From an uncultured Candidatus Saccharibacteria bacterium (GTDB lineage: Bacteria > Patescibacteriota > CPR2 > UBA1875 > CAIMLA01), in the NCBI GenBank assembly GCA_964594415.1, contig CAZQLQ010000006.1, forward strand, positions 1 to 54,140: 54,140 nucleotides of DNA. Reading direction: 5' to 3'. The notes below the pieces were generated by a model. That model saw nothing but the letters and a program-made list of their open reading frames with translations. It was not told where the DNA came from and searched no databases. The translations under genes and the position numbers were made by a program. How positions within the stretch are numbered: position 1 is the first letter of the stretch; the number at the start of each line of letters is the position of its first letter. This document shows, piece by piece, positions 2,698-49,608 of the stretch.

Positions 2698-3471
2698 CTA
2701 CATATACGTTGTATATAGCGCATGATAGCCAAAAAGAATACAGTTAAATCTTCTTAATACCCATGCCACTAGTAAAATTCCAGCAATAAACATAAAAGCT
2801 TGCCAACCAAAATTTACTTCATCATTTTGTTTTTCCATATCTGCAAACAGGTCGTGCATAGAAATATAAAGAAACCATCCTGCCAAAATTGCCATAAAAA
2901 TTGGAACGATATTATAGATATCCTCTTTTAAATAATAACCAATTCCTGCGCCAATTATCGTTGGAATGGTCCACAAAATATTCAGCATTAGAGCCTTTTT
3001 TCTAGTTAATCCTGAATGAATTAATTTTCCAAATACCCCGATTTCGTGAGGGATGTCACTAATAGCCAAAAAAATTGCAATTCTCAGCCCGTGAGCATAA
3101 TAGGAAGCAAAAACCGCAATCAATCCCCCAAAGATTAAGTTATGAATAATACTGGTAACTCCTAGTGAATAAATAACAGATTTTGCCCCCTTATCATTCT
3201 TGCTTTCGTGTTTCTTTAGCCAAAGTTCAAAAAGAAACACGGCAGAAATAGCAACCACAAACCATACAAGAGCGACTGTATAAATAAAAGGGATCAGATC
3301 TGGAAGGATATCCAGAAGTGCAGTAGCTAGTAATACTCCAGCTAGAAGCGGAATCAGATAGCGCATAAGCTTTTTAGTTCTTTCATTATGGAACAGAACA
3401 ATTGCGCCTCCACCAACCGAAATGACTCCATTGATAAACGCAAGTCCTAAAATAGTTATAAACTCTTTCAT
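2698..3471 (-). CDS. ZIP family metal transporter
   Basis: AGVLLATALLDILP, IIHNLIFG, DIPHEIGVFG and FLYISMHDL motifs. Confidence 0.85.
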   Translation of the reverse strand: MKEFITILGLAFINGVISVGGGAIVLFHNERTKKLMRYLIPLLAGVLLATALLDILPDLIPFIYTVALVWFVVAISAVFLFELWLKKHESKNDKGAKSVIYSLGVTSIIHNLIFGGLIAVFASYYAHGLRIAIFLAISDIPHEIGVFGKLIHSGLTRKKALMLNILWTIPTIIGAGIGYYLKEDIYNIVPIFMAILAGWFLYISMHDLFADMEKQNDEVNFGWQAFMFIAGILLVAWVLRRFNCILFGYHALYTTYM

Positions 3472-3630
3472 ATCACCCTAATTGCTTTAAAATGTTTTTT
3501 AAATAGATAAAATATAATATTGATAGTTTTAGCTGCTCTAAGTTTTAGTTGATTATCAAACAAACTGAAACAAAAAATAAGTTCGTACAATCAAAAGATT
3601 GTGAGCAAAATTTACAGATAAGCCTAAAAA

Positions 3631-9272: not shown

Positions 9273-9345
9273 TGGTGAACCCTACCCTCCTTCGTAATAC
9301 TACGGAACGGGCAGGCAGGACTTCCTCCAGAGGCGGATAAACTTC
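9273..9345 (-). pseudogene. Degenerate tRNA-Ala 3' fragment interrupted by palindromic inserts
   Basis: tggtgaaccctac-[cctccttcgtaatactacggaacgggcaggc]-aggact versus tggtggaccctacaggact at 9402. Confidence 0.55.
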
Positions 9346-9369
9346 TCGTCCTTAGCAAAATTAACCATC

Positions 9370-9391
9370 AAAAAACCCACCACGTTGGGTG
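9370..9391 (-). terminator. Terminator candidate downstream of the tRNA-Ala locus
   Basis: accca-acgtgg-tgggt hairpin plus TTTTTT on the minus strand. Confidence 0.55.
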
Positions 9392-9401
9392 AGTTGTTTG
9401 A

Positions 9402-9497
9402 TGGTGGACCCTACAGGACTCGAACCTGCCACCTCCTCGGTGCAAACGAGGCGCTCCCCGCCCGTACCGAACGGTACGTTCGGGCGGGTACCAGATG
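9402..9497 (-). pseudogene. 3' part of the outer (split) tRNA-Ala(TGC): D-loop with 32-nt insert, anticodon arm, T arm, acceptor 3' strand and CCA
   Basis: Reverse complement catctggta[32 nt]gagcgcctcgtttgcaccgaggaggtggcaggttcgagtcctgtagggtccacca; lacks nt 1-12. Confidence 0.9.
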
Positions 9498-9501
9498 GAC
9501 T

Positions 9502-9631
9502 TAATAAAATAGAGTTTGCTGAATAATTGGTGGACCTGACAGGACTCGAACCTGCTACCTCCTCGGTGCAAACGAGGCGCTCTACCAGGTGAGCTACAGG
9601 CCCGCGTTATTCAGCAAACTCTATTTTATTA
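9502..9631. repeat. Perfect 25-bp inverted repeat (9502-9526 / 9607-9631) enclosing tRNA-Ala
   Basis: taataaaatagagtttgctgaataa and its exact reverse complement. Confidence 0.95.
9528..9603 (-). tRNA. tRNA-Ala(TGC), intact inner copy
   Basis: 76-nt cloverleaf, G3:U70, anticodon loop TT-TGC-AC, encoded CCA. Confidence 0.97.
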
Positions 9632-9635
9632 TCAG

Positions 9636-9878
9636 TTATTCTTCGATAATTTTGTTTATAAACCTTCTACCAGCCGCCGATTTAAAGTACTTTTCTCTAA
9701 TCAGCGCCTCGTTCAAAGTTTCAACTTTTTCATAGTATTTAATTTTTAATTTACCCTTCATTTTAGAAGTAGTTTTTGTGTGACCTCCGTTATGCTCCTG
9801 CAACCTTCTTTTGAGATTGTTTGTGTATCCTTTATATAAGGTGCCGATTTCGTCTTCTAAGATATATACGTAATACAT
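9636..9878 (-). CDS. Small stand-alone GIY-YIG endonuclease (YhbQ/UPF0213-like)
   Basis: YYVYIL...LYKGYT-NL-RRL-EHN...YYE...EA-IREKYFKS; conserved Y/R/H/E residues present. Confidence 0.92.
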   Translation of the reverse strand: MYYVYILEDEIGTLYKGYTNNLKRRLQEHNGGHTKTTSKMKGKLKIKYYEKVETLNEALIREKYFKSAAGRRFINKIIEE

Positions 9879-9901
9879 GCTTGATATTTTACCACAACCT
9901 T

Positions 9902-9962
9902 AGGCGCTCCCCGCCCGTACCGAACGGTACGTTCGGGCGGGTACCAGATGAGCTAAGGGCCC
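9902..9962 (-). pseudogene. 5' part of the outer (split) tRNA-Ala: acceptor 5' strand and D arm with 32-nt insert
   Basis: gggcccttagctcatctggta[32 nt]gagcgcct; acceptor gggccct pairs perfectly with agggtcc of the 9402 piece; 9902-9950 is identical to 9449-9497. Confidence 0.9.
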
Positions 9963-10169
9963 TCATCGAAATCCGCTGTCAAGCTTCTTAAATAGCTTTC
10001 ACTATTTATTTCGCTTTTACGCGATTTCTCCTCTTCCCCTAAAAATCTACGATTTTTGGGGACCCCACAGAAACGAACTAAATTTCAAAAAATTCTTAAA
10101 ACCTTTTTGTACTTTCGCAACGCTTCCTTTTTCGCAAAAATTTATAATTTTTTGCGAGATGACTTATGT

Positions 10170-10198
10170 ATTTTACTCTTTTAAAAGGATTTTTTCAA
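10170..10198 (-). promoter_or_regulatory. Sigma70 promoter upstream of the split tRNA-Ala/GIY-YIG unit
   Basis: TTGAAA-17-TAAAAT. Confidence 0.6.
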
Positions 10199-10204
10199 GC
10201 TAGA

Positions 10205-10453
10205 TTACATTGCCCCAAGAGAACCGAGTAATCCGTCATAGATGTAATCAGCAACGCCAATCATCACCAGAATAGAGACAATAATCATTAGTGTGCCGAG
10301 AATTCTATAAAAAGTATAGGTCCCTGCCGGGCCAAGGTATTCCTCCGCAAATCCTATGCGAAAAGTATTATCAACAATTTGATGCGTATACGCAACAAAG
10401 CTTGTTCCGAGTGCTATACCAATAATCCCAAAGATAAACTTTCCTATTGTCAT
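10205..10453 (-). CDS. Conserved small 2-TM protein (AEEYLGPAGTY motif)
   Basis: 82 aa, SD aggagg; family recognised as common in CPR genomes (from memory). Confidence 0.75.
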   Translation of the reverse strand: MTIGKFIFGIIGIALGTSFVAYTHQIVDNTFRIGFAEEYLGPAGTYTFYRILGTLMIIVSILVMIGVADYIYDGLLGSLGAM

Positions 10454-10578
10454 ACCCCTCCTGTTGAATTAGTTTACCCGTCGAGAAAATTTCTAATTTT
10501 CTCGATAAAGGAGGAAACGCGATAAGTTGCAGTAATTTTATTATTTAAAATTATGAAACCTGCCAGCAGTTTCCGACG

Positions 10579-10655
10579 TGGTGGGCGATCGAGGACTTGA
10601 ACCTCGGACCTCGTCATTATCAGTGACGCGCTCTAACCACCTGAGCTAATCGCCC
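10579..10655 (-). tRNA. tRNA-Ile(GAT)
   Basis: 77-nt cloverleaf, anticodon arm cgtca-CTGATAA-tgacg, encoded CCA. Confidence 0.97.
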
Positions 10656-10680
10656 GTGAAATCAATTTTCAACACATAAT

Positions 10681-10709
10681 ATTTTACCAAATAAAGGGCA
10701 ATATTTCAA
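10681..10709 (-). promoter_or_regulatory. Sigma70 promoter of tRNA-Ile
   Basis: TTGAAA-17-TAAAAT about 25 nt upstream of the tRNA. Confidence 0.65.
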
Positions 10710-10765
10710 CAAGTAAGTGAGATGTACAAAAAGTCCATCGAAAGTAATATAAGGTTTAAGATGGA

Positions 10766-11230
10766 GCAGTTCTCACATTCGTTCGAACAATAAACCCCTT
10801 GAAAAACTGTTCGTCCCGAGGACCGACTATTTTAAAAAGAAGTTCAGTTTTTCTTGAACTTTGCATCACTTTCTTTCAAGAGAAAGTGAGAAAAGAAATT
10901 AGATTCTTCGACTTCGCTCAGAATGACACTATTTTGTCATCCTGAGGGAGCGGAGCGATTCGAAGGATCTAGAGATCCCTCGACAGGCTCTCCGACGGAG
11001 TCCGACACGAACTCATCGGAGTCGTCGGACGGGATGACATAGGGAAGGAGTGGATCCCTGGAATGACGCCAGGGATGACCACAGCACTATAAAAAAGTGC
11101 TGGGCGAAGCAGAGAAATAGGTAGATCCCCGCGTGCGCGAGGATGACATAGGGAAGGAGTGGATCCCTGGAATGACGCCAGGGATGACAAAAAACATTAT
11201 AAAAGTAGTTCTCTGATTCGCCTCGAACAT
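10766..11230. repeat. Second mosaic cluster of REP-like palindromes
   Basis: Same units as 1-470; direct repeat of about 40 nt (catagggaaggagtggatccctggaatgacgccagggatgac) at ~11038 and ~11146; 10795-10839 matches 54087-54131 with one mismatch. Confidence 0.9.
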
Positions 11231-11264
11231 GATTGGCATTGTAAAGATGCGGGGGTAAACAATT

Positions 11265-11293
11265 AAAAAACTCCACACAAGGCGGAGTTTTTT
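11265..11293 (-). terminator. Bidirectional-type terminator just downstream of the 16S processing stem
   Basis: aaaaaactcc-acacaaggc-ggagtttttt. Confidence 0.7.
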
Positions 11294-11297
11294 CGGC

Positions 11298-12938
<1,641 letters not shown>

Positions 12939-49418: not shown

Positions 49419-49608
49419 TGATCGGGGCGGCGGGATTTGAACCCACGAGCCAATAGTCCCTTGTCTAGGACATAAAATAATATCTTGGTCGGGGATGCGA
49501 GACTCGAACTCACGACCTCAGCGTCCCGAACGCTGCGCGCTACCAACTGCGCTAATCCCCGATTTTAAATTATGTCCTAGACGCGCTACCGAGCTGCGCT
49601 ACGCCCCG
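49419..49608 (-). pseudogene. Outer tRNA-Pro-like gene whose anticodon arm is replaced by a 13-bp stem enclosing an intact tRNA-Pro
   Basis: Acceptor cggggcg/cgccccg plus A73, D arm gcgc/gcgc, T arm gtggg-TTCAAAT-cccgc; inverted repeat 49463-49475/49570-49582; ends in TCA, not CCA. Confidence 0.85.
49486..49561 (-). tRNA. tRNA-Pro(CGG), intact inner copy
   Basis: 76-nt cloverleaf, anticodon arm cagcg-TTCGGGA-cgctg, encoded CCA. Confidence 0.97.

Follow-up and report, generated by a model that had tools for sequence, protein, structure and literature searches.

An intact tRNA-Ala between the arms of a perfect 25-bp inverted repeat, nested in a broken tRNA-Ala of an uncultured Candidatus Saccharibacteria bacterium: a candidate leader-trailer helix

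Introduction

In the RNase III stems of ribosomal RNA (rRNA) operons, as in the stem-loops of 23S intervening sequences, long pairing between leader and trailer encloses a structured RNA within a longer transcript. Here we analyze a 54,140-nucleotide (nt) stretch of DNA from an uncultured Candidatus Saccharibacteria bacterium (GenBank assembly GCA_964594415.1, contig CAZQLQ010000006.1, positions 1 to 54,140; the whole stretch is hereafter the window), in which the two arms of a 25-base-pair (bp) inverted repeat surround an intact transfer RNA (tRNA) gene for alanine, next to the gene of a small GIY-YIG nuclease and inside the remains of a second tRNA-Ala. As in the rRNA stems, the stem is conserved, and the conserved block ends where the stem ends; in contrast to them, the helix predicted in the window encloses a single tRNA, only where this is nested in a dead cognate tRNA, its cleavage is presumed, and the stems of many sister cassettes fall below two helical turns.

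A GIY-YIG nuclease gene is also found among tRNA genes in phage T4, where SegB, a free-standing homing endonuclease encoded in the tRNA gene cluster, promotes the inheritance of its own region (PMC2330249). The nuclease of our locus differs from SegB in having 80 amino acids (aa) and a catalytic domain only, in being of the UPF0213/SLX1 type and chromosomal in Patescibacteria and Bacteroidia, and in being accompanied by a GC-rich hairpin that is conserved and by an incomplete second copy of its tRNA target; its nuclease activity is predicted. In the rRNA genes of the candidate phyla radiation, GIY-YIG open reading frames (ORFs) occur in insertions that are neither group I nor group II introns (PMC11270868, in whose main text the term tRNA is absent). 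The bacterial radiation is the same and so is the placing of GIY-YIG ORFs inside structural RNA genes, but here the target is a tRNA gene, and its function is kept by duplicating or replacing the tRNA, not by removing the insert.

Integrative elements that use tRNA genes as insertion sites carry a duplicate of part of the gene, with which they make it whole again. The loci described below resemble such elements in that a partial duplicate keeps one tRNA intact while a dead fragment is left behind; they differ in which end is restored, 5' in Patescibacteria and 3' in Bacteroidia, in the lack of an integrase, in the size of the element (~0.3-0.45 kb) and in the hairpin that marks the dead copy. 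Short GC-rich hairpins repeatedly inserted at preferred short targets, including genes, are familiar from the GC clusters of yeast mitochondria and the palindromic elements of Rickettsia; unlike these mobile palindromes, the hairpins reported here are tied to one nuclease family, to certain tRNA positions (21/22, 9/10 and the T-loop) and to dead copies. Split, permuted and multi-intron tRNA genes have been described in Archaea and red algae (PMC3218864, PMC3978253). They share with our locus the interruption at the D-loop or anticodon loop and the complementary flanks forming a helix by the tRNA pieces, whereas our locus is bacterial, its outer gene is a decaying pseudogene and its insert is a complete tRNA. 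Our search of the literature found no description of tRNA-linked UPF0213 nucleases with hairpins, nor of nested tRNAs flanked by inverted repeats, a silence that is no proof of novelty.

Results and discussion

The stem and the tRNA-Ala that it encloses

All the features of the locus lie on the minus strand, and the sides of the arms are named in the sense of the tRNA. A repeat search of the window returned an inverted repeat whose 5' arm (leader side, 9607-9631) and 3' arm (trailer side, 9502-9526) are 25 nt long, 100% complementary and 80 nt apart; no further copy of the arm sequence was found in the window with three mismatches allowed, and zero shuffles gave a match. Between the arms lies an intact tRNA-Ala(UGC) at 9528-9603, detected by both ARAGORN and Rfam (65 bits), with a G3:U70 pair and an encoded CCA, which is the functional replacement gene. 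Reading along the minus strand, the order is the stop codon TAA of the 80-aa nuclease ORF, CTGA, the 5' arm, CGC, the tRNA ending in CCA, a single A and the 3' arm. An earlier reading of this DNA made without database searches (the sequence-only reading) had described a perfect 25-bp inverted repeat that begins 1 nt after the CCA and 3 nt before G1, with the upstream arm starting 4 nt after the GIY-YIG stop codon; the 25/25 complementarity and the three spacings proved exact. Folding of the 146-nt region as RNA gave a z of -9.2.

What that reading had overlooked is the context, namely a broken outer tRNA-Ala, the hairpins in its D-loop and a family-wide link between the nuclease and tRNA genes. 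The tRNA-Ala between the arms is nested within a second, disrupted tRNA-Ala on the same strand, with a 5' piece at 9962-9902 and a 3' piece at 9497-9402, both of which hold an identical 32-nt GC-rich hairpin in the D-loop. The upstream piece consists of GGGCCCTTAGCTCATCTGGTA (9962-9942, nt 1-21 of the tRNA), the first copy of the hairpin, CCCGCCCGAACGTACCGTTCGGTACGGGCGGG (9941-9910, between nt 21 and 22, with a folding energy of -20.3 kcal/mol), and GAGCGCCT (9909-9902, nt 22-29), where this dead copy ends. The downstream piece starts with CATCTGGTA (9497-9489, nt 13-21), continues with the second hairpin copy (9488-9457) and runs from GAGCGCCT through the remaining tRNA-Ala to CCACCA (nt 22-76, 9456-9402); it is without nt 1-12. 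The hairpin is an exact 32-mer present twice in the window, and a perfect 49-nt direct repeat (9449-9497 = 9902-9950), to which the upstream GAGCGCCT belongs, is common to both pieces. When the hairpins are taken out, nt 1-21 of the upstream piece together with 9402-9456 rebuild a tRNA-Ala equal to the intact tRNA-Ala of an orthologous locus (L082); the inner tRNA-Ala differs from this outer one at the acceptor pairs 6:67 and 7:66, in the D-loop and in the variable region.

ARAGORN called a second "tRNA-Ala" at 9402-9477, which is a miscall of the dead 3' piece and scores 24 bits in Rfam, under the threshold. Hairpin-bearing wrecks of this sort may inflate tRNA counts in the annotations of Patescibacteria.

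Conservation of the arms in orthologous loci

We fetched 80 loci out of 409 relatives found in a scan of one genome per species, mostly Patescibacteria, and compared the orthologous, syntenic tRNA-Ala loci L081-L086, among which L086 is a diverged relative that carries the cassette. When the arm was searched as a 22-mer in 241 million metagenome records there was one match, L086, at the syntenic locus. The cassette is also present in contigs of four other metagenomes (permafrost, landfill, wastewater), and a metagenome contig of the JGI shows the arrangement of the window. No long perfect repeat was detected in any of the 80 genome loci.

Between the window and L086 the 82-aa ORF upstream of the locus is 67.6% identical and the nuclease gene 69.6%, the latter decayed in L086 by a 105-nt deletion that removes catalytic residues, and the upstream dead tRNA copy has been deleted in L086. 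The 5' arm is identical at 25/25 positions, the CGC leader at 3/3, the inner tRNA at 76/76 and the 3' arm at 23/25 (48/50 for the arms together); the downstream dead copy then falls to 73% identity (78% outside the hairpin), with 12 changes in 55 tRNA-derived nt, which argues that the outer copy is unconstrained. As a control, the tRNA-Ile of the same region is 76/77 identical between the window and L086, and its flanks cannot be aligned from the first base outside the tRNA. In the X5 and X8 contigs, where the 5' arm is invariant as it is in L086, there are 0 differences in 9607-9631 versus 15 in the next 64 nt. Variation of the 3' arm is restricted to its outermost base, 9502, and to 9518, changed in L086, X5 and X8; since 9502 differs in the relatives, the 25th pair is derived. 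The change at 9518 (G>A, hence C-to-U in the RNA) converts a G-C pair into G·U and is the sole internal change of the Ala stem, in which no true compensatory pair was seen across the relatives. A duplex of about two helical turns is thus present on both sides of the comparison, with 25 perfect pairs in the window and 21 bp plus one G·U in L086.

By these comparisons selection acts on the inner tRNA, and its outer counterpart is a pseudogene. Arms and tRNA together make up a conserved island with sharp boundaries in flanks ~70% identical; the locus is orthologous and single-copy, and the island is older than the split of these lineages. The expectation of the sequence-only reading that orthologues would keep the pairing therefore held for the cassette-bearing L086 and failed for L081-L085, which show no complementarity flanking the tRNA-Ala because the nested cassette is absent there. 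Those loci contain the closest homologues of the nuclease (69-74% aa identity in the alignment) in the same place after tRNA-Ile, and are laid out as a dead 5' copy with hairpin(s), an ORF ending ...LGP* inside the tRNA, the intact tRNA-Ala and a terminator.

Recurrence of nested, stem-flanked tRNAs

For 150 tRNAs, from the fetched loci and the window, the 45 nt upstream were aligned to the reverse complement of the 45 nt downstream. A complementarity score of at least 11 was obtained at 9 of the 150, versus 0.15 expected from mismatched flank pairs, and a score of at least 10 at 11 of the 42 tRNAs that lie beside fragments of a cognate tRNA, versus 1 of the remaining 108 (Fisher p = 3e-6). 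Leader-trailer stems are thus found almost only around tRNAs nested in cognate tRNA wrecks.

The window itself holds a second nested cassette (49422-49608, minus strand), with an intact tRNA-Pro(CGG) at 49486-49561 inside a broken tRNA-Pro whose 5' piece is at 49582-49608, whose 3' piece is at 49422-49462 and whose anticodon arm is defective. Its stem pairs GTCTAGGACATAA (49570-49582) with TTATGTCCTAGAC (49463-49475) and comprises 21 pairs with 3 mismatches, 13 of the pairs being perfect. There is no ORF, nuclease gene or hairpin inside this cassette, which may represent the end state after loss of the nuclease gene; when sought in other samples, it turned up in the source study only. Further stem-flanked tRNAs are a nested tRNA-Val in L043, with the insertion at the anticodon loop, a nested tRNA-Ile (L060) and tRNA-Met (L056), both with D-loop insertions, a tRNA-Val in L065, and tRNA-Pro in L077, L080 and L024. 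A weaker example, L006 (8-bp stem, score 8), repeats the layout of the window, with ORF, stem, tRNA, stem and a dead copy from about nt 7. In L080 (~1180-1470) the tRNA-Pro appears to be a Russian doll with three layers of nesting, and a short inverted repeat flanks every layer (GAGGCTCT/AGAGCCTC, CTACGGGGCA/TGCTCCGTAG and GGGGGGTTCTTTT/AAAAGAACCCC). In the nested cassettes the arms always form the two extremities of the insert and directly adjoin the broken outer tRNA, and their sequences are unrelated from one cassette to another, including the two cassettes of this genome and those around the same tRNA species.

The mismatches in these stems bear on the molecule in which they act. A feature of duplex DNA should show G·U and A·C mismatches equally often; counted on the tRNA strand, the stems of nested cassettes have 10 G·U (7 without L080) and 0 A·C (two-sided binomial p = 0.002, and 0.016 without L080). 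Moreover, between L077 and L080, which hold the same tRNA-Pro, the stems differ by concerted changes in both arms with the pairing kept. When the 3' arm was shuffled in a thermodynamic model, the inner acceptor stem formed with a probability of 0.41 instead of 1.00 at the tRNA-Ala locus of the window, and of 0.66 instead of 0.99 in L056.

A proposed leader-trailer helix for a replacement tRNA

The reading that we prefer, to which we give about even odds (roughly 0.5), is that the arms form an RNA-level leader-trailer helix that isolates the replacement tRNA-Ala and most likely offers an entry cut to an RNase III-type enzyme. The native tRNA-Ala, downstream of the 16S rRNA and tRNA-Ile genes, would have been invaded by a selfish element with two parts, the gene of the SLX1-like GIY-YIG nuclease and a GC-rich hairpin, the latter lodged within the D-loop of an incomplete tRNA copy. 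What separates the nuclease gene from the rest of the native gene in this branch is another tRNA-Ala, slightly different and with inverted-repeat flanks. The native gene is now dead, being truncated, hairpin-bearing and decaying in relatives. Assuming co-transcription, the composite transcript would hold near-identical dead tRNA pieces and very stable hairpins; the downstream copies of acceptor and T-arm, together with the hairpins, could pair wrongly with the live tRNA, and 3' exonucleases should be unable to trim past them. The helix would close off the live tRNA so that it folds independently, and would most likely give an RNase III-type nuclease a nearby cut, freeing a pre-tRNA for RNase P and 3' trimming. 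The inverted repeat probably arises at the insertion or repair event (e.g. by inverted duplication), with the properly folding cassettes surviving; since every cassette has different arms, these probably originate with each insertion. An SLX1-like nuclease acting on hairpins or cruciforms may be the suspect for that origin, a speculative suggestion.

A function in the transcript is favoured because the arms do not decay like the adjacent pseudo-tRNA, and because of the concerted changes between L077 and L080 and the occurrence of G·U but never A·C. The sequence-only reading had offered two explanations, a processing handle that releases the tRNA from the nuclease transcript or the terminal inverted repeats of a mobile tRNA cassette; the handle is the better of the two and is indirectly supported by the conserved arm island, the tRNA-Ile control, the concerted changes in the Pro stems and the G·U pattern, the RNase III cut itself being presumed. 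None of the ten ORFs near the locus that were scanned with Pfam is related to rnc, a result that covers those ten ORFs only.

Several observations weigh against a helix acting in the transcript. The sample of loci is biased toward neighbours of GIY-YIG genes, and the G·U count rests on few events. Nested replacement tRNAs without a stem were found in L018 and L068, and the stems of the other nested cassettes have just 8-17 bp, below classical RNase III substrates. The thermodynamic model that shows an effect of the stem for Ala and L056 gives no benefit for the Pro cassette of the window or for L043, and a worse result for L060. RNA runs contain just 4-6% of the locus words, and the reading does not account for how a perfect inverted repeat arose. 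Lastly, one mismatch should barely weaken a 25-bp helix, so the near-perfect conservation of the arm sequence exceeds what stability demands; such strict conservation fits the need for an uninterrupted duplex of about two turns and not a mere requirement for stability.

Alternative explanations

The alternative that survives best places the arms at the level of DNA, either as a relic, the ends of the insert left by an inverted duplication or template switch during insertion or repair, or as a handle, a hairpin or cruciform that the SLX1-like nuclease would cut to move the tRNA cassette, in both cases with no role in RNA. It would account for the position of the arms against the broken outer tRNA in every nested case, and for their being unrelated between cassettes, whence they must arise with each event; the relation of the nuclease to SLX1/UPF0213, its lack of a DNA-binding domain and the richness of the element family in palindromic hairpins inserted at tRNA loops point in the same direction. 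A relic, however, should decay like the pseudo-tRNA (73%), yet the arms are 96-100% identical, and a strand-specific presence of G·U, not of A·C, is not predicted for a duplex-DNA feature. In addition, the arms occur at a single orthologous locus of the metagenome collection, no target-site duplications were seen by eye at the junctions of Ala, Pro, L043, L056 and L060, and there is no recombinase or transposase among the ten neighbouring ORFs scanned. We regard a purely DNA-level role as rather unlikely. These last three findings, together with the unrelated arms of the two cassettes of the window, also told against the mobile-cassette explanation of the sequence-only reading, which finds no support if a transposon is meant.

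One may also ask if the outer tRNA is still used, the helix joining its halves as in the split tRNAs of Archaea, so that the locus would yield two tRNAs. The geometry of the helix does bring the outer 5' and 3' pieces together, and cuts by RNase P and RNase Z would leave a 3'-OH and a 5'-phosphate. Nevertheless, the halves overlap by 49 nt and each contains the 32-nt hairpin in its D-loop, the 3' half is without nt 1-12, and in L086 the outer copy has its 12 substitutions in 55 nt and has lost the 5' copy; the anticodon arm of the outer tRNA-Pro is likewise defective, and the outer 3' copy is below the Rfam threshold. We consider continued use of the outer tRNA very improbable.

Perfect inverted repeats around a short segment are also the anatomy of invertible DNA switches, in which recombination between the arms would flip the tRNA gene on and off. 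Nevertheless, the window, L086 and the contigs of seven runs (X1-X3, X4, X5, X6 and X8) all show one orientation, and the contigs gave no inversion, excision or strand-changing joints at the arms, although contigs cannot show rare variants. No invertase is encoded by the neighbouring ORFs scanned, and flipping a tRNA-Ala(UGC) would probably be harmful, the search for other copies being confined to the window; a switch seems to us scarcely credible. Chance or an assembly artefact, such as a chimeric inverted join, has nothing in its favour beyond the general risk of metagenome assembly and can be practically dismissed, given that shuffles produced no arm match and that independent permafrost, landfill and wastewater assemblies and the JGI contig share the structure.

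Other candidates were tried and rejected. A miniature inverted-repeat transposable element, or another transposon with terminal inverted repeats, would have the repeats, but there is neither a target-site duplication nor multiple copies. No ribozyme core of a group I intron is present, and a permissive Rfam search of 9300-10100 gave only matches to tRNA and spurious microRNA-like hairpins. That the hairpin might be an intron spliced out of a tRNA still in use was ruled out, as the copies decay. Campbell-type integration of a 453-bp circle was discarded because there is no integrase and the anatomy of the relatives points to stepwise events, and a promoter inside the 5' arm because no convincing hexamers were seen and it would leave the conservation of both arms unexplained.

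The GIY-YIG nuclease family and its association with tRNA genes

The nuclease gene (9636-9878, minus strand) has its own TAA stop and encodes an 80-aa protein of the UPF0213/SLX1-like type (Pfam PF01541, E = 2e-14) in which the residues invariant in the family, G17, R25, H29, E50, E62, Y64, K66 and G70, are all present. Compared with the PDB, the family profile matched the UPF0213 proteins 1ywl (6e-13) and 1zg2 (3e-11) and, weakly, SLX1 (7e-4); by Pfam and the PDB profile the protein is a catalytic domain only, with the sequence-specific DNA-binding domain absent. Searches of NCBIfam and PHROGs assigned no family to it. More than 100 homologues were found, mostly of 78-87 aa and from Patescibacteria wherever the source names the organism; viral contigs gave 6 weak relatives only, which argues that the element is not mainly phage-borne.

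In 60 of the 80 loci a co-oriented tRNA starts -15 to +45 nt from the stop codon of the nuclease, and in 48 of the 80 this stop codon is the tRNA's own U8-A9-G10; among the tRNAs adjoining nuclease genes are Ala, Thr, Val, Ile, Phe, Asp, Arg and Lys. Of the 80 loci, 54 have a hairpin of the window's family no more than 140 nt upstream of the start of the ORF. In the canonical loci examined, the hairpin is lodged in an incomplete copy of the adjoining tRNA; the copy begins precisely with tRNA nt 1 and has the hairpin either after GGTA (21/22) or after nt 9. The arrangement is mirrored in Bacteroidia (L036, L046, L062, L071 and L076), with an intact tRNA, the nuclease ORF and a 3' tRNA fragment bearing a hairpin in the T-loop; L046 is a tandem array of at least 5 ORF-plus-hairpin units with a period of ~358 nt. 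From this architecture, in which one intact tRNA is always kept, the hairpin and the nuclease gene emerge as a unit that lives in tRNA genes. Traits of the homing type are the position relative to the tRNA, fixed in those 60 of 80 loci, and the decay of the nuclease gene in L086.

Loci from further contigs encoding relatives yielded no new nested cassettes; one of them, P0063, consisted of redundant copies of one locus, apparently not from Patescibacteria. The predicted protein of another homologue, P0009, extends into ...GIAQLVEQRFCKAKVVGSSPTSG, which resembles a translated tRNA gene; this may be one more hint that the ORFs of the family lie directly against tRNA genes and that gene callers often extend them too far.

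We identified 89 hairpins in 87 sequences (86 related loci plus the window), with the consensus CCCGCCCGAACG...CGTTCGGGCGGG and usually 32 or 36 nt long. The main contexts of insertion are GGTA|GAGC, TA|GCTC and GTTC|GATT; the tRNA positions hit are 21/22, 9/10, the T-loop and sometimes the anticodon loop, always in dead copies beside UPF0213-type GIY-YIG genes. Some pseudo-tRNA copies have three or four hairpins at different loops (L025 ~3300-3480, L006 ~2040-2290). A second type of palindrome, CCTGCCTGCCGGCAGGCAGG, was observed in L006, L041 and L043.

The wider finding is therefore threefold: a replacement tRNA in the wreck of the native gene, a family of tRNA-targeting nucleases with hairpins, and a recurrent helix-wrapped design. 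It is tempting, if doubtful, to go further and see in Patescibacteria, and in mirror image in Bacteroidia, a gene-drive-like system in which SLX1-type mini-nucleases with a cognate hairpin would attack tRNA genes at loop positions, and would persist or spread because the destroyed tRNA is replaced by a helix-packaged one, either duplicated or imported. Repeated rounds would then leave Russian-doll tRNA genes, such as the apparent three layers of L080, and the helix would be a new, dedicated way to mature a tRNA from a transcript of its own dead copies.

Should these proposals be correct, a selfish nuclease element could colonise an essential single-copy RNA gene without splicing, since the element or the ensuing repair would supply a spare tRNA and the conserved helix would let the spare mature. 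In the candidate phyla radiation, tRNA genes would join rRNA genes as targets of insertion. The GIY-YIG proteins of the UPF0213/YhbQ-like kind, which are widespread and of unknown function, would gain a testable role, and spurious duplicate tRNA calls, such as the dead copy called by ARAGORN, would be explained. The locus would also provide a natural leader-trailer stem dedicated to a bacterial tRNA.

Surroundings of the locus

Past the 3' end of the outer tRNA, reading of the sequence reveals a terminator-like hairpin followed by a T-run (9374-9395, minus strand). Upstream are the 16S rRNA (12860-11401), the tRNA-Ile (10655-10579) and the 82-aa ORF (10453-10205), which encodes a membrane protein and is conserved in L086. 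No 23S rRNA is found downstream of the tRNA-Ala locus within the window, and the rRNA arrangement is unlinked, with 16S, a spacer of ~750 nt, tRNA-Ile, the 82-aa ORF and the tRNA-Ala locus following one another over 9402-12860. The spacer between 16S and tRNA-Ile contains a perfect 48-nt direct repeat (11032-11079 and 11141-11188) and a single GTCATTCTGAGCGAAGTCGAAGAATC motif at 10902-10927.

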